Source: Methylococcales bacterium | Lineage (GTDB): Bacteria > Pseudomonadota > Gammaproteobacteria > Methylococcales > Methylomonadaceae | Length of the DNA: 64,000 bases | Assembly: GCA_965247565.1 (NCBI GenBank) | Contig: CBDFHF010000003.1 | Location: forward strand, 196,447 to 260,446 | Reading direction: 5' to 3' | In this document: positions 14,514 to 25,813 of the stretch, one piece after another | Layout: each line of letters starts with the position of its first letter | How positions within the stretch are numbered: the stretch's first letter is position 1 | Notes under the pieces: generated by a model | Told to the model about the DNA's origin: nothing | Seen by the model: only the letters and a program-made list of their open reading frames with translations | The model's database searches: none | Position numbers and translations under genes: made by a program

Positions 14514-16601
14514 ATGGCAAAAGAACCCAAAACAGAACCCCTGGAAAAACAACTCTGGAAAGCCGCCGATAAGCTGCGCAAAAACATTGATGCCGCAGAA
14601 TATAAACACATCGTGTTAGGTTTGATTTTTCTCAAATACATTTCAGACTCGTTTGAACAGCACTTCGCCACGTTACAGGCAGGCGAAGGCGAATATGCAG
14701 GCGCCGATCCGGAAGATAAAGATGAATATGCGGCAGAAAACGTGTTCTTTGTGCCGCAAGATGCACGTTGGAGTTATTTGCAATCTAATGCGCGCCAACC
14801 AGACATTGGCAAAATAGCGGATGCAGCAATGGATGCGATTGAAGCAGAAAATGCCTCACTTAAAGGTGTACTCCCCAAAGTATTTGCCCGCGACAATTTA
14901 GACCCCGCAAGCTTAGGTCAGCTCATTGATTTAGTCGGCAATATCGCGCTAGGTGATGCCAAATCGCGCAGCGCCGATGTGCTAGGACATGTATTTGAAT
15001 ACTTCCTCGGTGAGTTTGCTTTGGCCGAAGGCAAACAAGGTGGGCAGTTCTATACGCCGCGCTCAGTGGTGGAGTTGTTGGTCGAGATGCTTGAGCCTTA
15101 CCAAGGCCGTGTCTTCGACCCATGCTGTGGCTCTGGCGGTATGTTTGTGCAATCTGAAAAGTTTGTGGCAGACCACCAAGGCCGTGTGAATGATATTTCG
15201 ATTTACGGGCAAGAGAGCAACCAAACCACATGGCGCTTGGCGAAGATGAACCTTGCCATTCGCGGTATTGAAGCCTCACAGGTCAAATGGAACAACGAAG
15301 GCAGCTTTTTAAACGACGCGCATAAAGATGTAAAAGCCGATTACATCATTGCCAACCCGCCATTCAATGTAAGTGATTGGTCGGGCGAACTACTGCGCAC
15401 CGATGGCCGCTGGCAATATGGCGTACCGCCCGCAGGCAATGCCAACTTTGCATGGCTGCAACACTTTATCTATCACCTTTCCCCCACAGGTCAAGCAGGC
15501 GTGGTGCTGGCTAAAGGCGCACTCACCAGTAAAACCAGTGGGGAGGGAGACATCCGCAAAGCGCTGATTGAGCAAGGCAACGTCATTGATTGCATCGTTA
15601 ACCTGCCAGCCAAGTTATTCCTCAATACGCAAATCCCCGCCGCCTTGTGGTTTATGCGCCGCAACAGAAATACTCCCTCGCCCTTTAAGGGAGAGGGCGG
15701 GGGTGAGGGTAAAAAGCAACAAGCCTTCGCCGACCGCAGTAACGAGATTTTGTTTATTGATGCCCGCAACCTAGGCCACCTCATCAATCGCCGCACCAAA
15801 GAGCTGAGCCATGAGGACATTAAACAAATCACTGACACCTACCATGCTTGGCGCAATGCACCATCACCCCTAGCCCCTCTCCCAAAGGGCGAAGGGAATC
15901 CCCCAGAACCCTCTCCCTCTGGGAGAGGGCAGGGTGAGGGAAGCAGTGAGGGCAATAAACTACCAGAGAAACTGCTTGAAAACGCACGAAAATTACGAAA
16001 AAATCAAACCGATGCTGAAGCTCTACTTTGGAGTTTGTTGCGCAGCCGTCAGCTTAATGATTGTAAATTTCGCCGTCAGCACCCTGTAGAGCCTTATATT
16101 CTCGACTTTTACTGCCATGAAGAAAAGCTAGCGATTGAATTGGATGGCGGACAACACAATACAGAATCTGCCATTGCTAATGACCATAAAAGAACCGAGT
16201 ATCTAAAATCACAAGGTATTACCGTATTACGGTTTTGGAATAATGACGTATTGCAAAATACCGAATCTGTGTTGCAGCAAATATATAGCACCCTCACCCC
16301 AGCCCTCTCCCAAAGGGAGAGGGAGTCAAAAGCAGAACCCTCGCCCTTTGGGAGAGGGCTGGGTGAGGGGAAAGCCTACCAAGACATCCCCGGCTTCTGC
16401 GCATCCGTCAGCCTAGAGCGCGTCAAAGAACTCGATTACGTGCTCACCCCAGGCCGTTATGTTGGCCTACCCGATGATGAAGATGACTTTAACTTTGCCG
16501 AGCGCTTTAACGCCCTAAAAGCAGAATTTGAAGCGCAGTTGGTGGAGGAAGATAAACTGAATAAAGCCATTGCAGAGAACTTGGCGAGGGTGAAGTTGTG
16601 A
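14514..16601 (+). CDS. hsdM: Type I restriction-modification DNA methyltransferase subunit HsdM carrying two in-frame insertions (a solo palindromic repeat, and a DUF559 domain flanked by palindromic repeats)
   Basis: HsdM_N region, N6-adenine MTase motif 'IIANPPFN', typical C-terminal 'LTPGRYVG...' segment; 695 aa versus ~520-540 aa for typical HsdM. The extra residues map to GC-rich repeats and a DUF559 block. Confidence 0.85.
15674..15709. repeat. Solo GC-rich palindromic repeat inside hsdM, translated in frame as '[12 protein letters not shown]'
   Basis: 'tccctcgccctttaagggagagggcgggggtgaggg' is an imperfect inverted repeat. It shares the unit GGGAGAGGGC(N)GGGTGAGGG with the repeats at 15860-15952 and 16282-16362. 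Confidence 0.7.
15859..16372 (+). mobile_element. In-frame insertion in hsdM: DUF559 (Vsr-like PD-(D/E)xK endonuclease) domain (~15957-16293) bracketed by GC-rich palindromic repeat modules (15860-15952 and 16282-16362)
   Basis: DUF559 consensus '[24 protein letters not shown]...[30 protein letters not shown]...[10 protein letters not shown]'. Flanks are nested inverted repeats ('ccctcaccccagccctctcccaaagggagaggg ... ccctcgccctttgggagagggctgggtgagggg') encoding PSP-GRG-GEG peptides. HsdM sequence resumes normally after the insert. Confidence 0.8.
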
Positions 16602-17779
16602 GTGAGTGGAGTTCTTTAAAGCTTGCTGATGCACCATTAGAGATTTTGGATGGTGACAGAGGTAAAAACTATCCATCACAAGATGAGTTTACAGATTTTG
16701 GATATTGCTTATTTTTAAGTACAAAAAATGTTCGATCAATTGGTTTCGATTTTTCAGAGTGCCAATTTATTTCAAAACAGAGAGACGAACTTTTACGTAA
16801 AGGGCGACTTGAGCGCAATGATGTTGTACTCACAACAAGAGGCACAGTTGGTAATTTAGGTTTCTTTAATGAAAAGGTAAATTACGAAAAAATTAGAATA
16901 AATTCAGGCATGGTCATAATAAGACCAGATGCGACAAAACTATTACCAGCTTTTAATTTCTATACTTTTAGAAAATTACAATCAGACTTTTTAACATTCA
17001 CATCAGGCAGTGCTCAACCTCAGTTACCAATTAGAGATTTAAAAGAAATTGAAATCTCAATACCACCACTCGAAGAACAAAAAGCCATCGCCTCAGTTCT
17101 CAGCAGCTTGGATGACAAAATCGACCTGCTCAACCGCCAAAACACCACCCTAGAAAGCATGGCCGAAACGCTGTTTAGACAGTGGTTTGTAGAAGAAGCG
17201 CAGGAGGATTGGGAGGAAGGTAAACTTTCAGATGTGTCCGACAACATAAGGCAATCCGTCCAAGCAAAAGATATTCAGGCAACTACTAAATACATCGGTT
17301 TAGAGCATATTGACCGTCGTAATATTGCACTCAAACAATATGGTGTTGGCGAGGATGTTAGTAGTAACAAGTATGCTTTTGAAAAAAATGATATTTTATT
17401 TGGTAAGTTAAGGCCGTACTTTCATAAAGTATGTTTCTCCCCATTCTCTGGAATATGCTCAACTGACATTTTAGTTATCAGGCCAAAATCCTCCGATTAT
17501 TTTGCATTCTGTTTGTTTGCATACTTTCAGAATGATGTAGTTGAGTATGCTAATTTAGGCTCAGGCGGGACACGAATGCCAAGAACTGATTGGGAAACAC
17601 TTAAACAATACCCAATTTCATTGCCTGACAAAAACACACTTTTGAAATTTAACGATATAGTTTTACCATCAATAAATCAAATTACTGAAAATTTGGTGCA
17701 AATCCAAACCCTAGAAAAACTCCGCGACAACTTGCTCCCTAAGTTGATGAACGGTGAGATAAGGATTAACAATGACTAA
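16598..17779 (+). CDS. hsdS: Type I restriction-modification specificity subunit HsdS (two target-recognition domains)
   Basis: Two TRDs separated by a central conserved region, C-terminal conserved helix '[12 protein letters not shown]'; GTG start overlaps the hsdM stop (GTGA); markedly AT-rich relative to hsdM/hsdR. Confidence 0.85.
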
Positions 17780-17790
17780 TCAAAAAGCTC

Positions 17791-17873
17791 GTAGGTTGGG
17801 CTGAAGAATGAAGCCCAACAAATGTTGCAACATACGCTAAACGTTGGGCTTCCAAAAGTCAGCCCAACCTACA
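17791..17873. repeat. REP/BIME-like palindromic units upstream of the RAYT gene
   Basis: 'gtagg-GTTGGGCT-gaagaatga-AGCCCAAC' and 'GTTGGGCT-tccaaaagtc-AGCCCAAC-ctac': two hairpins sharing the same 8-bp stem, bounded by gtagg/cctac. Confidence 0.7.
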
Positions 17874-17895
17874 AGATGATGAAATTTGGGGGGTA

Positions 17896-18429
17896 ATGGT
17901 TTTGCGTTATCGACGAGCGGATGTGGCAGGCGGCACTTATTTTTTTACGGTGAATTTGGCGGATAGAAAAGTCGATTTGTTAACACGCCATCTTGATGAT
18001 TTGCGCGAGGTGATTAACAAGGTTAAACAGGCGCATCCTTTTGTGATTGAGGCGATGGTGGTGTTGCCCGAACATTTGCATGCGATTTGGCGTTTGCCGC
18101 ACGATGATGTGGATTTTCCTATGCGGTGGAGTTTGATTAAGGCAGGGTTTTCGCGCCGTATGGATAAAACTGAACCTATACGCGCCAGCCGCCAAGCAAA
18201 ACGTGAGCGTGGTATTTGGCAACGCCGCTATTGGGAGCACATCATCAGAGATGAAAACGATTTTGAGCGGCATGTGGATTATATTCATTACAACCCTGTG
18301 AAACATGGGCATGTGCAACGTGTGATTGATTGGCCGTTTTCGACATTTCACCACTATGTGGAGCGAGGGTTTCTGCCATCGGATTGGGGAGATGGCGAGG
18401 TAGATATTTTGACGGGCAGTGAAAGGTAA
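17896..18429 (+). CDS. REP-associated tyrosine transposase (RAYT / TnpA_REP, IS200/IS605 Y1 family)
   Basis: HuH motif 'PEHLHAIW' and catalytic Tyr region 'YIHYNPVKHG'; 177 aa; flanked on both sides by inverted REP units. Confidence 0.85.
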   Translation: MVLRYRRADVAGGTYFFTVNLADRKVDLLTRHLDDLREVINKVKQAHPFVIEAMVVLPEHLHAIWRLPHDDVDFPMRWSLIKAGFSRRMDKTEPIRASRQAKRERGIWQRRYWEHIIRDENDFERHVDYIHYNPVKHGHVQRVIDWPFSTFHHYVERGFLPSDWGDGEVDILTGSER

Positions 18430-18442
18430 TATGTTTGTTCTG

Positions 18443-18519
18443 TAGGTTGGGTAGAGGCACCAAGCTCAACGGATTGATACGGTAAATGTGGGGCTTCCTT
18501 ACGTCAGACCAACCTACGG
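18443..18519. repeat. REP/BIME-like palindromic units downstream of the RAYT gene (degenerate copies of the upstream units)
   Basis: 'gtaggttgggtagagg...' and 'gtggggcttccttacgtcagaccaacctacgg', bounded by gtagg/cctac as on the other side. Confidence 0.65.
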
Positions 18520-18572
18520 ACTAACAGTAATAATGTAGCCTGATCATTAACTGAAACAAAAATAAATCTGAG

Positions 18573-19565
18573 ATGATGGATACCACTAAACAGCAGATTG
18601 TCATTTATCAAACTGAAGATGGTAAAGCGCAAATAGACGTGCAGCTTGAGCAAGAAACTGTGTGGTTGAGCCAAGCACAAATGGTTGACCTTTTTGATAG
18701 AAACAAACGTACTATTTCAGAGCATATTGGCAATATTTTTAAAGAGGGTGAGTTGCTAGAAAATTCAGTTGTCCGGAAATCCCGGACAACTGCTAGTGAC
18801 GGCAAAACATATGAGGTGACTGAATATAACCTAGATGTCGTGATATCAGTAGGTTATCGGGTTAAGTCTCAACGTGGTACGCAGTTTCGCATCTGGGCCA
18901 ATAACGTACTTAAACAGTACTTGGTGCAAGGCTATGCATTAAATGAACGCAAACTCCAAGCTGAGCAAGAAAAGCTGGATGATTTAAAGCGTACGATCGC
19001 TTTGTCATCTCGCCTACTACAAAACCAAGCATTAACACTGCAAGAATCACAATCCATATTGTTGGTGCTTGAAAAATACAGCCACGCACTCACTGTGCTG
19101 GATGATTACGACCATCAACGTTTGATGGTGGTTGGTACCAAGGCGGTGACTCGGCCCAAAATTGATTACCATGAAGCCATGGCGCAAATTCACTTATGGC
19201 GCGAGAAAGAAAAGCTTGGCGGCTTATTTGGTAACGAGAAAGATAATTCGTTTGCAAGTGCGTTAGAAACCATCTATCAAACCTTTGATGGACAAGAGCT
19301 TTACCCGAGCATAGAAGAAAAAGCCGCCAATCTGCTATATTTTATTGTTAAGAACCATGCGTTTAGCGATGGCAATAAGCGGATTGCCGCAGCGATATTT
19401 GTGTGGTTTTTAGAGCGCAATGATCACTTGTATAACGAGCTAGGCGAAAAACGCATTGCAGACAATGCGTTAGTGGCGTTTACCTTACTCATCGCAGAGA
19501 GCAAGCCTGATGAACGTGAGATGATTGTAAAAGTCATCATTAACTTAATTAACGGCAATAACTAA
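18573..19565 (+). CDS. RhuM-family N-terminal domain fused to a Fic/Doc (death-on-curing) domain
   Basis: N-terminus 'IVIYQTEDGKAQIDVQLEQETVWLSQAQMVDLF...ISEHIGNIFKEGEL...NLDVVISVGYRVKSQRGTQFRIWA' (RhuM signature); C-terminal Fic/Doc motif 'HAFSDGNKRIAAA' (HxFx(D/E)GNKR). Confidence 0.8.
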   Translation: MMDTTKQQIVIYQTEDGKAQIDVQLEQETVWLSQAQMVDLFDRNKRTISEHIGNIFKEGELLENSVVRKSRTTASDGKTYEVTEYNLDVVISVGYRVKSQRGTQFRIWANNVLKQYLVQGYALNERKLQAEQEKLDDLKRTIALSSRLLQNQALTLQESQSILLVLEKYSHALTVLDDYDHQRLMVVGTKAVTRPKIDYHEAMAQIHLWREKEKLGGLFGNEKDNSFASALETIYQTFDGQELYPSIEEKAANLLYFIVKNHAFSDGNKRIAAAIFVWFLERNDHLYNELGEKRIADNALVAFTLLIAESKPDEREMIVKVIINLINGNN

Positions 19566-22500
19566 TGGCTAAACTCACAGAATCCGAAATCGAAACCCTA
19601 GCCATTGAGCGTTTGCAAGCGCTTGGGTTTGATTATGTATATGCGCCTGAGATTGCGCCTGATTCTGCTAACCCTGAGCGTGAGAGCTTTGCCGACGTGT
19701 TATTGCTTGGCCGGTTGCGCAAGGCGGTTGCCCGCATTAACTCTGCCCTGCCCGCTGCCGCTTTAGATGAAGCCATCAAAACCATTCAACGGATTAGCTC
19801 ACCCGAGTTGTTAGCCAATAATGAAGCCTTTCACCGTTTGCTGACTGAAGGTGTGAATGTCAGCTATCAGAAAGACGGCAATACCCGTGGTGATTTGGTT
19901 TGGCTGATTGACTTCAACCATGTTGATAATAACGAGTTTATAGTGGCGAATCAGTTCACCATTATTGAAAACAACCAGAACAAGCGACCTGATTTGATTC
20001 TGTTTGTGAACGGCTTGCCGTTGGTGGTGATTGAGCTAAAAAACGCAGTTGATGAAAACGCGACGATTAAATCGGCGTATCAGCAAATCAACACCTATAA
20101 AGCCAGCATCCCCAGTTTGTTTACCTATAACGGCTTTGTGGTGTTATCTGATGGACATGAAGCGAAAGTGGGCAGTATTTCGGCGGGGTATACTCGCTTT
20201 ATGGCCTGGAAAACAGCGGATGGTAAAAGTGAAGCTTCTCGTCTAGTTCCGCAATTAGAAACGCTGATTGACGGCATGTTAAATAAAACCACGCTGATCG
20301 ATTTAATCCGCCATTTTATTGTGTTTGAAAAATCTTCTAAAGAAGACCCTAGCACCAAACAGATTAGCATTAGCACGGTTAAAAAGTTGGCGGCTTATCA
20401 CCAATATTATGCAGTGAATGCGGCGGTCATCTCTACGTTAAGAGCCAGTGCAGAAGTCAGTAGTGTCGCTCAAGCCCCGGCCAGTTATGGTTTGAGTGAT
20501 GTGCGCAGCCAACCTAAAGGCGATCGCAAAGCCGGTGTAGTCTGGCATACCCAAGGCAGTGGTAAATCGCTCAGCATGGTGTTTTATACCGGCAAGATTG
20601 TGTTGGCGTTGGATAATCCCACCATTGTAGTGATTACGGACCGTAACGACTTGGATGATCAATTGTTTGATACTTTTGCCGCTTCCAGCCAACTGTTACG
20701 CCAAGAACCTAAGCAGGTAGAAGATCGGCAGCATCTTAAAAAGTTGTTAAAAGTGGGCTCAGGTGGGGTAATTTTCACCACCATCCAGAAATTTCAACCT
20801 GAGGAAGGTAATGTTTATGAAACTTTATCTGAACGCCAGAATATTGTGGTGATTGCTGATGAAGCCCACCGCACCCAATATGGCTTTAAGGCAAAAACGG
20901 TAGACGATAAAAACGCAGCAGGTGAAGTGATCGGGCAAAAAATTGTCTATGGATTTGCTAAGTACATGCGTGATGCCCTGCCCAATGCCACTTACTTGGG
21001 CTTTACCGGCACACCCATTGAAAGCACTGATGTCAACACGCCTGCAGTGTTTGGTAATTATGTAGATATATATGATATTGCCCAAGCGGTTGAAGATGGT
21101 GCGACAGTACGAATTTATTACGAAAGCCGACTAGCAAAAGTTAACCTGAGCGACGCAGGCAAACAGCTGATTGCTGAATTGGATGAGGAACTGGAGCTTG
21201 AAACTCAGGATGTCGCCTCTCAACCGAAAGATGCCGAAAAAGCCAAAGCCCGCTGGACGCAGGTAGAAGCGTTGATCGGTAGTGAGAAACGTGTGCAAAA
21301 CATTGCACAAGATATAGTGAACCACTTTATGCGGCGCCAGGAAGTCTTTGCTGGAAAAGGCATGGTTGTGAGCATGTCGCGCCGCATTGCTGCCGCGCTG
21401 TACGATGAAATGATCAAGCTAAAGCCCGATTGGCATTCGGATGATTTGAGTCGTGGCACAATTAAGGTGGTGATGACAGCAGCATCAAGCGATGGCCCAC
21501 AACTGATGAAGCATCATACTACCAAGCAACAGCGCCGTACTCTGGCTGAGCGCATGAAAGACCCACAAGACGAACTAAAATTGGTCATTGTGCGAGATAT
21601 GTGGCTGACGGGTTTTGATGCGCCCAGCATGCACACGCTTTATATTGATAAACCCATGCAAGGCCATAATCTGATGCAAGCCATTGCACGCGTAAACCGG
21701 GTTTATGGTGATAAACCGGCAGGATTGGTGGTGGATTATTTAGGTATTGCGGCGGATTTAAAAAAGGCCTTGTCATTTTATTCCGACGCAGGCGGTAAAG
21801 GCGACCCCGCTGAAGCGCAAGAACAAGCGGTCGCTTTGATGCTGGAAAAACTGGAAGTAGTCTCGAATATGTACCACGGCTTTGCCTATGAAAACTACTT
21901 TGAAGCGGATACGTCTAAAAAACTCTCGCTCATTTTGGCGGCTGAAGAACATATCTTGGGCCTGCAAGATGGCAAAAAGCGTTACCTGAATGAAGTGGCG
22001 GCGTTATCACTGGCTTTTGCTATTGCCATCCCGCATGAACAAGCTATGGACGTGAAGGATGAAGTGGCTTTTTTTCAGGCTGTGAAAGCGCGCTTGGCCA
22101 AATTTGACAGCGTTGGCAATGAAAACTCTGATGTGGAAATCGAAACCACCATTCGGCAGGTGATTGACCAAGCTCTGATTTCAGAACAAGTCATTGACGT
22201 GTTTGATGCGGCAGGCATTAAAAAACCGGATATTTCCATTTTAAGCGATGAGTTTTTGCAAGAACTAAAAAATCATGAACATAAAAATATCGCGCTGGAA
22301 GTACTGAAAAAACTGTTAAATGATGAGTTGAGAGTTCGTACTAAAAAAAATCTGGTGCAAAGCCGAAGTTTGATGGAAATGCTGGAAAATGCCATCAAAA
22401 AATATCAAAACAAAATACTGACCGCCGCTGAAATAATGGATGAGCTGATCCGCATCAGTAAAGAAATGGTCGCGTCTGATAACGAAGCCCGAAATATGGG

Positions 22501-22804
22501 CTTGAGTGAATTTGAATATGCGTTTTATACCGCTGTAGCCAATAACGATAGCGCAAAACAGCTCATGCAACATGAGCAACTACGGGCATTGGCTGTGGTA
22601 CTTACCCAAAAAGTGCGCGAAAACGCCACGATTGACTGGACAATTAAGGAAAGTGTAAAAGCTAAATTGAAAGTCATTGTTAAACGCACTTTGCGCCAGT
22701 TCGGTTATCCACCCGATATGCAGTTACTGGCCACTGAAACGGTCCTTAAGCAAGCAGAACTGATTGCCAATGAATTGATCCAACCTACCCGTTCGCTCAG
22801 TTAA
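19565..22804 (+). CDS. hsdR: Type I restriction enzyme R subunit HsdR (SF2 helicase/endonuclease)
   Basis: 1079 aa; N-terminal PD-(D/E)xK nuclease region; helicase motifs (Walker A 'TQGSGKS', DEAH box 'VIADEAHRTQYG'); C-terminal helical domain; ATG overlaps the upstream stop (TAATG). Confidence 0.9.
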   Translation: MAKLTESEIETLAIERLQALGFDYVYAPEIAPDSANPERESFADVLLLGRLRKAVARINSALPAAALDEAIKTIQRISSPELLANNEAFHRLLTEGVNVSYQKDGNTRGDLVWLIDFNHVDNNEFIVANQFTIIENNQNKRPDLILFVNGLPLVVIELKNAVDENATIKSAYQQINTYKASIPSLFTYNGFVVLSDGHEAKVGSISAGYTRFMAWKTADGKSEASRLVPQLETLIDGMLNKTTLIDLIRHFIVFEKSSKEDPSTKQISISTVKKLAAYHQYYAVNAAVISTLRASAEVSSVAQAPASYGLSDVRSQPKGDRKAGVVWHTQGSGKSLSMVFYTGKIVLALDNPTIVVITDRNDLDDQLFDTFAASSQLLRQEPKQVEDRQHLKKLLKVGSGGVIFTTIQKFQPEEGNVYETLSERQNIVVIADEAHRTQYGFKAKTVDDKNAAGEVIGQKIVYGFAKYMRDALPNATYLGFTGTPIESTDVNTPAVFGNYVDIYDIAQAVEDGATVRIYYESRLAKVNLSDAGKQLIAELDEELELETQDVASQPKDAEKAKARWTQVEALIGSEKRVQNIAQDIVNHFMRRQEVFAGKGMVVSMSRRIAAALYDEMIKLKPDWHSDDLSRGTIKVVMTAASSDGPQLMKHHTTKQQRRTLAERMKDPQDELKLVIVRDMWLTGFDAPSMHTLYIDKPMQGHNLMQAIARVNRVYGDKPAGLVVDYLGIAADLKKALSFYSDAGGKGDPAEAQEQAVALMLEKLEVVSNMYHGFAYENYFEADTSKKLSLILAAEEHILGLQDGKKRYLNEVAALSLAFAIAIPHEQAMDVKDEVAFFQAVKARLAKFDSVGNENSDVEIETTIRQVIDQALISEQVIDVFDAAGIKKPDISILSDEFLQELKNHEHKNIALEVLKKLLNDELRVRTKKNLVQSRSLMEMLENAIKKYQNKILTAAEIMDELIRISKEMVASDNEARNMGLSEFEYAFYTAVANNDSAKQLMQHEQLRALAVVLTQKVRENATIDWTIKESVKAKLKVIVKRTLRQFGYPPDMQLLATETVLKQAELIANELIQPTRSLS

Positions 22805-25141: not shown

Positions 25142-25813
25142 ATGAAAAATGTTTTTGCTTTAACTGTACTTTCATCAAGCATGTTGTTTGCCTCACAATC
25201 TTTTGCGGCACCTGTTTTTGTAAGTATTGATGATTTTAATGCCGGTGCGCAATCAATCAGTGACAATACTGCAAACGGTCTTGCTGTAACTGATAGCAAC
25301 GCGATTCGTACCATTTCATCTAACATGCTTACTGCAGTGCCACCTGTTGGCAACACTTTTGATGTTACTGGTGTAAATCCAGGAGGTTTTGTGGACATCA
25401 CGAATGGTAATAATGATGACTCTGAAGCGACGATCTCATGGGCCTTGGCCGGTGGATTGCTGCCTTCAACAGCCACCAGTGCCTCTCTGATGTTTACAAT
25501 ACTAGCAACAGATGGCAACCCAACAAATTTGGCTTTCACTTTTAACGGAAATCCATTTGGCGCTGTTAACGTTCCTGGCAACACGTCGGATATGGACATA
25601 CCCATTAGTTTAACGGCTACTCAAGTTGCACAAGTAAACGCAGGTGGTTTGCTTAAACTGATAATCAATGGTGCGCCGGGTTGGGATCTGTCGATGGATA
25701 ACCTAGGTTTTAGTTATGAACCAGCCGCCAACGCTGTACCAGAACCAGCAAGCTTAGCTTTGATTGCAGCGGGCCTAGCCGGGTTTGGTTTTCGTAAAAA
25801 ACAGCAAGCATAA
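25142..25813 (+). CDS. PEP-CTERM sorting-domain exported protein
   Basis: Signal peptide; C-terminal 'VPEPASLALIAAGLAGFGFRKKQQA' (PEP motif + TM + basic tail); followed by an intrinsic terminator. Confidence 0.8.
   Translation: MKNVFALTVLSSSMLFASQSFAAPVFVSIDDFNAGAQSISDNTANGLAVTDSNAIRTISSNMLTAVPPVGNTFDVTGVNPGGFVDITNGNNDDSEATISWALAGGLLPSTATSASLMFTILATDGNPTNLAFTFNGNPFGAVNVPGNTSDMDIPISLTATQVAQVNAGGLLKLIINGAPGWDLSMDNLGFSYEPAANAVPEPASLALIAAGLAGFGFRKKQQA

Follow-up and report, generated by a model that had tools for sequence, protein, structure and literature searches.

Fusions of a RhuM-like N-terminus to a Doc-type Fic domain have been described twice. In Fico & Mahillon (2006, PMC1626090), Doc homologues from proteobacteria are reported to carry COG3943/RhuM N-termini and to have no antitoxin upstream. 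Anantharaman et al. (2013, PMC3710099) found that RhuM is frequently fused to Doc, that RhuM-like genes take the position of Doc or PrrC in restriction-modification (R-M) operons, and that such loci may provide layered defence against DNA, RNA and protein. For phage defence by single genes of these kinds, a cold-seep study showed that a RhuM-only gene of the PDC-S05 type protects E. coli against T7, T5 and T4 (about 1000-fold against T7 and T5), and SoFic is a validated standalone Fic defence protein. Here we analyse a gene that joins a RhuM N-terminal domain (RhuM-N) to a Doc-type Fic domain between hsdS and hsdR of a Type I R-M operon, in a 64,000-nucleotide stretch of a Methylococcales genome (contig CBDFHF010000003.1; hereafter 'the window', to which all coordinates refer). 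The gene is an ordinary, intact member of a large and already catalogued candidate anti-phage family. It is of modest interest in itself, and a palindrome in its coding sequence is the one feature that might repay more work.

An intact Doc-type Fic domain behind a RhuM N-terminal module

The gene and the parts of its product are as follows.

18573..19565, plus strand: RhuM-N/Doc fusion gene, 330 aa, ATG start (Pfam, NCBIfam and PADLOC matches)
18597..18860, plus strand: N-terminal beta strands and winged helix-turn-helix (wHTH), aa 9–96 (AlphaFold2 model); presumed sensor or nucleic-acid-binding domain
18870..19016, plus strand: long single helix, aa 100–148, linker or possible coiled coil (DSSP on the AlphaFold2 model)
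19077..19124, plus strand: conserved segment YSHALTVLDDYDHQRL, aa 169–184, within the helix preceding the Doc domain (116-sequence alignment)
19167..19553, plus strand: Doc-type Fic domain, helical, aa 199–327, with the Fic fold
19356..19382, plus strand: catalytic motif HAFSDGNKR (H262, D266, N268, K269, R270), aa 262–270, aligned with HIFNDANKR of P1 Doc (chain 3k33_A)

The fusion had been proposed from the letters of the window and a list of its open reading frames (ORFs), in what we call the sequence-only reading, and profile searches bear it out. Pfam Virulence_RhuM (PF13310) matches aa 65–136 (E 1.1e-23; 84.2 bits against a gathering cut-off of 33.7) and Pfam Fic (PF02661) matches aa 215–280 (E 1.9e-13; 51.5 bits against a cut-off of 24). 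The first match is partial, being limited to profile positions 1–75 of 252, so that only the N-terminal module is held in common with RhuM.

The catalytic motif, which the sequence-only reading had also picked out, is intact and of the Doc (kinase) type. K269 aligns with K73 of P1 Doc, and Lys in place of the second Gly (GNKR) is the Doc signature; this Lys motif is reportedly linked to inverted ATP binding and to kinase rather than AMPylase chemistry. Across an alignment of 116 homologues that are 50–88% identical, H262, F264, G267, N268, K269 and R270 are invariant and D266 is kept in at least 90%. Among representatives of 50%-identity clusters HxFxDGNKR is overwhelmingly prevalent, with few degenerate exceptions. 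The Fic inhibitory motif (S/T)xxxE(G/N) occurs nowhere in the protein.

Structure prediction with AlphaFold2 on 19 close homologues (predicted local distance difference test, pLDDT, 61; Doc domain unusable) was superseded by a model built on the 116-sequence alignment, which is of moderate quality (pLDDT 69.5; predicted template modelling score 0.43). A 49-residue helix runs through aa 100–148 of this model, and DSSP places the helix that carries YSHALTVLDDYDHQRL at aa 156–180. Nine of the 16 positions of this segment are invariant in the 116 sequences (Y169, A172, L173, L176, D177, Y179, D180, H181 and L184) and two more are nearly so, which makes it a candidate built-in regulatory or inhibitory element. 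When the Doc domain was compared with known structures, the best matches were to Doc itself, with AMPylating Fic proteins behind. The N-terminal 194 aa matched no solved structure by sequence. We regard the integrity of the gene, the identity of its domains, the intact Doc-type motif and the Doc fold as established.

The putative recognition helix and wing (aa 43–86; window ~18699–18830) form a mosaic across two family alignments. Three wing classes are present (short, ...SDGK-TY; long, ...QEGxRxVxR; shortest, ...NSD-KP), and their combinations follow neither overall identity nor taxonomy. This pattern suggests that the DNA-contacting part may be exchanged by recombination or cassette-like swapping.

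A large family that is already catalogued

The sequence-only reading implied that the gene was new, and in this it was mistaken: the family is already PADLOC PDC-S23 and has been in the literature since the papers of 2006 and 2013 cited above. The best PDC-S23 model aligns over the full length of the protein (aa 4–328 against profile positions 3–325 of 327; E 2.8e-135), and three PDC-S23 models match, with E from 2.8e-135 to 4.3e-122, covering aa 4–328. Models of the RhuM candidate PDC-S05, also from PADLOC, match aa 2–140 (E down to 4e-71). A search of 5.8 billion proteins returned at least 8000 candidates; all 120 among the matches listed have the PF13310 + PF02661 architecture, and the names among them include 'virulence protein RhuM/Fic/DOC family protein' (NCBI) and 'prophage maintenance system killer protein' (JGI). 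When 50%-identity cluster representatives were scanned exhaustively with HMMER, 29,081 relatives passed E≤1e-3 and 1,613 passed E≤1e-30; proteins of ~330 aa that align over their full length reach down to ~36% identity. No identical entry is on record for the exact protein sequence. There is also no ready E. coli instance of the gene, because it has no DNA match in E. coli genomes.

For a survey of genomic context one genome was taken per species. At least 554 species have a relative, and the best 80 loci were examined; these loci also serve the comparisons in the next section.

A conserved palindrome in the coding sequence of the wing

18766..18792, no strand assigned: perfect inverted repeat within the ORF, CAGTTGTCCGG aaatc CCGGACAACTG, codons 65–74, in the first strand of the wing (terminator scan, inverted-repeat analysis)

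A terminator scan, in which G-T pairs are allowed, flagged this segment as a 12-pair stem on the minus strand. Read on the plus strand it has 11 perfect pairs and encodes S65-VVRKSRTT-A74. Perfect arms of at least 10 nt are present at the protein-aligned site in 70 of 80 genes (79 family members and the window gene), with dimensions of up to 17+1+17, and both the arm sequences and the peptides encoded there differ widely (VVRKSRTT, TIRKFRIV, NVQNLHIA, NMQKMHIA, VVAKNATT, TTEDSSVV, VVKDSLTT, VCSVLEHT and KFGNSEF). The palindrome is the longest inverted repeat of the window ORF, and in 74 of 78 ORFs it is the longest of the whole gene, its arms being mostly 10–17 nt (7–8 in four ORFs) against at most 9 elsewhere in the ORFs. 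A cause at the level of the peptide was rejected: synonymous-codon shuffles keep an arm of at least 10 nt in only 35 of 1600 trials, compared with the 70 of 80 genes observed.

Across the family the palindrome keeps its position but not its sequence, and changes in its arms are compensatory. An ungapped DNA alignment guided by the protein gives a covariation score of 0.471 against 0.194 for shuffles, none of 500 of which reaches the observed value, and registers slid along the alignment score at most 0.154; double changes are found in all 14 pairs. The stem recurs beyond the fusion genes of the survey. Among six RhuM-N paralogues checked in the same loci, the palindrome is clear in three, weak in one and absent from two. 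Perfect arms of at least 10 nt are found in 31 of 38 unique RhuM-N genes from viral contigs, and both plasmid copies (Vibrio and Legionella) have the palindrome. When all were pooled, the stem was present in 113 of 124 unique segments, which came from several phyla, viral contigs and plasmids, and 52 different left arms occurred. Mismatches amount to 12 of 1386 pooled pairs, and G-T (4) is not favoured over A-C (5). Positions 3–12 from the axis are essentially 100% Watson-Crick with two to four pair types each, the inner two pairs are paired in only ~70%, the base at the axis is always A or T, and pairing ends at positions 13–14. One subfamily has its axis shifted by 1 nt, another by 8 nt. The geometry is a stem of 10–11 bp with a 5-nt A/T loop.

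Strict Watson-Crick pairing with no enrichment of G-U fits a hairpin or cruciform at the DNA level; it weakens the case for an ordinary RNA helix and disfavours a typical one. We rate it as close to an even call, leaning slightly against, that the palindrome of RhuM-N genes, with arms of 10–13 bp, has a function at the level of the nucleic acid and is conserved across phyla as such an element. It would then form a hairpin in mRNA or single-stranded DNA, with selection acting on the structure and not on the sequence; control of toxin expression, or a structure-specific self-site, would be plausible roles. The main alternative, which also fits, is a self-perpetuating quasi-palindrome whose arms are kept perfect by intrastrand template switching and which has no function.

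Other explanations were tried and rejected. The segment is terminator-like on the antisense strand in the window and in one subfamily, but the T-run is not conserved, and an antisense terminator was rejected as a general explanation. A conserved antisense ORF is contradicted by inconsistent frames and lengths. An operator with further promoter-proximal copies is not supported: another copy of the arm lies within 1.5 kb in only 5 of 103 loci. A link to the transposase RayT and its repetitive extragenic palindromic (REP) sequences, which lie upstream of the gene in the window, was dismissed since the palindrome has no GTAG REP signature and most loci have no RayT. Rfam returned nothing relevant for the palindrome, and no literature was found that links RhuM with a palindrome or hairpin.

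If the palindrome is a functional element, the RhuM defence family carries a previously unrecognised cis-element, the protein sequence of the wing is dictated by base-pairing rules, and a nucleic-acid structure constrains a whole defence family. It would then also offer a handle on how single-gene toxins are silenced.

Position in the Type I operon and in related genomes

The operon around the gene contains the following features.

14514..16601, plus strand: hsdM, Type I methyltransferase subunit, 695 aa (Pfam HsdM_N, N6_Mtase and DUF559; PADLOC MTase_I, E 8.7e-189)
16598..17779, plus strand: hsdS, specificity subunit (Pfam Methylase_S, two stretches; PADLOC Specificity_I, E 1.5e-102)
17788..17875, no strand assigned: left REP inverted pair (GTAGGTTGGGCTGA ... 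TCAGCCCAACCTAC), an inverted repeat with 17-nt arms, 94% complementary
17896..18429, plus strand: RayT, REP-associated tyrosine transposase (NCBIfam NF047646, E 2.4e-58, 196 bits against a cut-off of 80; Pfam Y1_Tnp)
18439..18520, no strand assigned: right REP inverted pair, with direct and inverted repeats, in the place expected for an antitoxin gene
19563..19567, plus strand: TAATG stop/start overlap of the RhuM-N/Doc gene with hsdR (read directly in the sequence)
19565..22804, plus strand: hsdR, restriction/translocase subunit, 1079 aa (Pfam HSDR_N, SWI2_SNF2, T1R_D3-like and T1RH-like_C; PADLOC REase_I, 1268.8 bits)

By Pfam and PADLOC hsdM, hsdS and hsdR make up a complete Type I system, in which the start of hsdS overlaps the stop of hsdM. 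The sequence-only reading placed the RhuM-N/Doc gene in a guest slot between hsdS and hsdR. That position is real, but the gene is not the sole guest: RayT comes first in the interval and the RhuM-N/Doc gene second, abutting hsdR, so the order of the cassette is hsdM-hsdS-(RayT REPtron)-rhuM/doc-hsdR with RhuM-N/Doc as the last guest gene. The overlap with hsdR is as that reading gave it, the last A of the stop codon TAA (19563–19565) being the first base of the hsdR ATG (19565–19567), and RhuM-N/Doc is probably translated in step with hsdR.

The same reading saw no small antitoxin ORF upstream, and our scan agrees: 18430–18572, where the right REP pair lies, contains no plus-strand ORF of at least 20 aa. 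A hidden antitoxin is excluded because these 143 nt are mostly REP hairpin without such an ORF. The adjacent small antitoxin gene that marks type II systems of the Phd-Doc kind is thus not found here; upstream genes show no conservation in the 80 loci, and the account of 2006 agrees. We also take it as established that no antitoxin gene is present and that close relatives keep the gene next to hsdR.

Context differs sharply between clades. Searched with family hidden Markov models (HMMs) of the window HsdM, HsdS and HsdR, 18 of 28 proteobacterial loci have hsd genes (protein identity ~61–78%), among them loci from Methylobacter, Methylotenera, Gallionella and Nitrosomonas; the search for hsd neighbours had been made with single-sequence phmmer, and its repetition with the family HMMs showed nothing further to have been missed. 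All 18 belong to one Type I lineage, with 73–80% identity to the window HsdR (13 full-length subunits compared) and 76–95% to HsdM (11 compared). Near-identical cassettes are present in beta- and gammaproteobacteria, and the whole cassette therefore moves horizontally. The RhuM-Doc gene directly abuts hsdR in 11 loci, with an overlap of 4 or 1 nt in 10 and a gap of 0 in the remaining one (L013), and these include the two nearest relatives (89% and 87% identity). Divergence of the RhuM-Doc protein is correlated with that of HsdR (Spearman 0.65, n=15).

The cargo of the slot varies (DUF87 ATPase, plain RhuM, DUF6088, PIN or RayT), and the slot behaves as a small defence-gene hotspot. Within this Type I lineage (L081/L082, 3262–7880; L083, 3752–8004; L031, 9199–9573) the cargo differs by species: it may be a DUF87 ATPase together with a plain RhuM and two unknown genes, unknown proteins of 321 and 863 aa with DUF6088, or a PIN-domain gene, for example. 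Other proteobacterial copies of the RhuM-Doc gene lie beside Mrr, an Eco57I-type methylase with a ResIII helicase, another ResIII helicase, or an AAA_15/21 ATPase, and two sit among metabolic genes.

Outside the Proteobacteria the linkage is rare. In Bacteroidota, Ignavibacteria and Cloacimonadota (54–63% identity) only 2 of 52 loci have hsd genes, and these are of an unrelated lineage (HsdR identity ~30%). The neighbours of the 52 copies are heterogeneous, with no Pfam family in more than 4 of 94 neighbours; they include some integrases, AbiEii, one Lamassu LmuB and many housekeeping genes. Neither of the two full-length plasmid copies, from Vibrio and Legionella, is in an R-M context. The R-M linkage is thus real and confined to one clade. 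The idea of a toxin coupled to a restriction complex is the weak point of the sequence-only reading, and the outcome by which that reading said it would be refuted, a gene widespread outside R-M contexts, is half borne out. The RhuM-Doc protein probably needs no restriction complex, its independence from Hsd partners following from distant relatives and plasmid copies that stand alone.

Several observations concern the neighbouring genes. The GTAGGTTGGGC motif of the REP sequences has 6 matches within the window against 0.64 expected, and four of these lie beside rayT. The equivalent operon of five related loci (L001, L004, L021, L022 and L024) also contains a RayT gene, either upstream or downstream of the RhuM-Doc gene; the RayT of L004, a Methylotenera metagenome-assembled genome (MAG), has 87% identity to that of the window and occupies the same position. 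A Methylotenera MAG also gives the best matches for HsdM and RayT, and Methylobacillus caricis gives that for the RhuM-Doc protein. The window HsdM is long, 695 aa against 511–579 aa in relatives, owing to an in-frame insert of DUF559 (a Vsr-like endonuclease) at about aa 486–594. Flanking this domain are five copies of a GC-rich palindromic repeat (CCCTCTCCCAAAGGGAGAGGG), at 15675, 15875, 15909, 16303 and 16338 (region 15675–16358), which translate to PSP..GEG peptides; domain and repeats together look like a small mobile element inserted in frame with the ORF unbroken. Farther downstream, an ORF at 25142–25813 ends in a PEP-CTERM-like sorting signal (VPEPASLALIAAGLAGFGFRKKQQA); taken with the best matches just named, it is in keeping with a source among the methylotrophic beta- or gammaproteobacteria.

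A proposed single-chain toxin and the alternatives

On balance we lean towards a self-contained, single-chain sensor-effector toxin that acts by abortive infection, with a Doc domain that phosphorylates EF-Tu. The N-terminal winged-helix domain would sense an infection cue, for example foreign nucleic acid or a phage protein, and the helical linker including YSHALTVLDDYDHQRL would keep the Doc domain off, replacing a separate Phd-type antitoxin. Once activated, the Doc domain would use ATP to phosphorylate EF-Tu, translation would stop, and the arrest would abort infections that escape restriction; in this cassette, translational coupling to hsdR would ensure co-expression with restriction. 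Toxicity, the EF-Tu target, autoinhibition, the trigger and a role in defence are what we infer here.

Several results weigh against this proposal. The NCBIfam Doc model TIGR01550 scores 37.6 bits (E 2e-9), marginally under its curated cut-off of 38.65, and with only ~13–19% identity between the RhuM-Doc protein and P1 Doc the choice of EF-Tu as target is an extrapolation. The packing of the domains, and with it autoinhibition, cannot be read from an AlphaFold2 model of only moderate quality. No promoter-like site was found directly upstream of the gene. Most neighbours in Bacteroidota are integrases or housekeeping genes, not defence genes, and the searched literature contains no mention of PDC-S23 and no experiment on it.

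The best placed of the alternatives, though an unlikely one, is that the gene serves as an addiction module of the R-M cassette: a long-lived Doc toxin, silenced for as long as the operon is expressed or by a labile N-terminal part of the toxin itself, would kill cells that lose the cassette and so stabilise the mobile element. Doc is the classic post-segregational killer of P1, the hsdM-S-guest-R cassette is clearly mobile, as its spread between beta- and gammaproteobacteria attests, and family members are found on plasmids and beside integrases and transposases. Against this, a labile antitoxin encoded separately is missing, many chromosomal copies are solitary with housekeeping genes around them, and single genes of the related RhuM and Fic kinds give protection from phage when expressed on their own.

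Next in rank, and also improbable, is a toxin of another chemistry or target, which might AMPylate or phosphorylate gyrase/topoisomerase IV (as FicT does), another translation factor, or a phage protein. The chemical versatility of Fic domains, the low identity to P1 Doc and the sub-threshold TIGR01550 score leave some room for it, but the motif is GNKR and not GNGR, and the structural matches put Doc ahead of the AMPylating Fic proteins.

A regulator of the restriction enzyme or operon has a slim chance, a little below that of the preceding alternatives. The winged helix could bind DNA in the manner of a C protein, or the Doc domain could phosphorylate HsdR or HsdM to tune restriction, for instance during establishment or restriction alleviation. 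The wHTH fold, the tight coupling to hsdR that is kept in 11 loci and a divergence correlated with that of HsdR are in its favour; the correlation, however, is also expected from co-inheritance of one cassette, most family members occur away from R-M systems, both fold and catalytic motif match a toxin kinase, and no additional operator-like copies were found near the gene. A virulence factor is highly improbable, the family name, taken from a Salmonella SPI-3 (Salmonella pathogenicity island 3) mutant phenotype, being all that speaks for it, while the closest relatives are free-living methylotrophs, iron oxidisers and nitrifiers, the surroundings are R-M genes and mobile elements, and neither a secretion signal nor a nearby secretion system is present.

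The value of the gene lies in its being a clean natural Doc-type toxin candidate with no antitoxin, translationally coupled to hsdR. It is a convenient construct for asking about defence by PDC-S23, about the EF-Tu kinase activity of Doc, and about the layering of restriction with a translation-arrest toxin.

Comparison with known systems

The closest described system is PDC-S23, which has the same architecture (PF13310 + PF02661), the same length of ~330 aa and the same single-gene form without a partner. No structural difference separates the two; the window copy differs merely by being embedded in a Type I operon, and PDC-S23 is itself only a candidate. RhuM-only proteins (PDC-S05; Salmonella SPI-3 RhuM) have the N-terminal domain in common with the window protein and differ in the C-terminal effector. 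Compared with P1 Doc, the EF-Tu kinase of the Phd-Doc type II toxin-antitoxin system, the window gene has no Phd antitoxin gene and its Doc domain follows ~195 aa of winged helix and helical linker in one chain. SoFic and the class I–III Fic toxins (FicT/VbhT) likewise use a Fic-fold effector as a standalone defence protein or toxin, but they have the AMPylase motif GNGR and an (S/T)xxxE(G/N) inhibitory helix, whereas the window protein has GNKR and no inhibitory motif.

PrrC, of the EcoprrI Type I R-M locus, likewise comes from a guest toxin gene in the interval from hsdS to hsdR, and the logic proposed for both is that of a second line of defence should restriction be defeated. The proteins are unrelated, PrrC combining an ABC ATPase with a HEPN RNase and the window protein a wHTH with Doc. 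PrrC is physically silenced by the Hsd complex; for RhuM-Doc no Hsd dependence is indicated because most family members have no Hsd neighbour. The likeness lies in the slot, which has been explicitly equated with that of RhuM/Doc (Anantharaman et al., 2013, PMC3710099), and the analogy with PrrC drawn in the sequence-only reading agrees with that account of RhuM/Doc in R-M operons.

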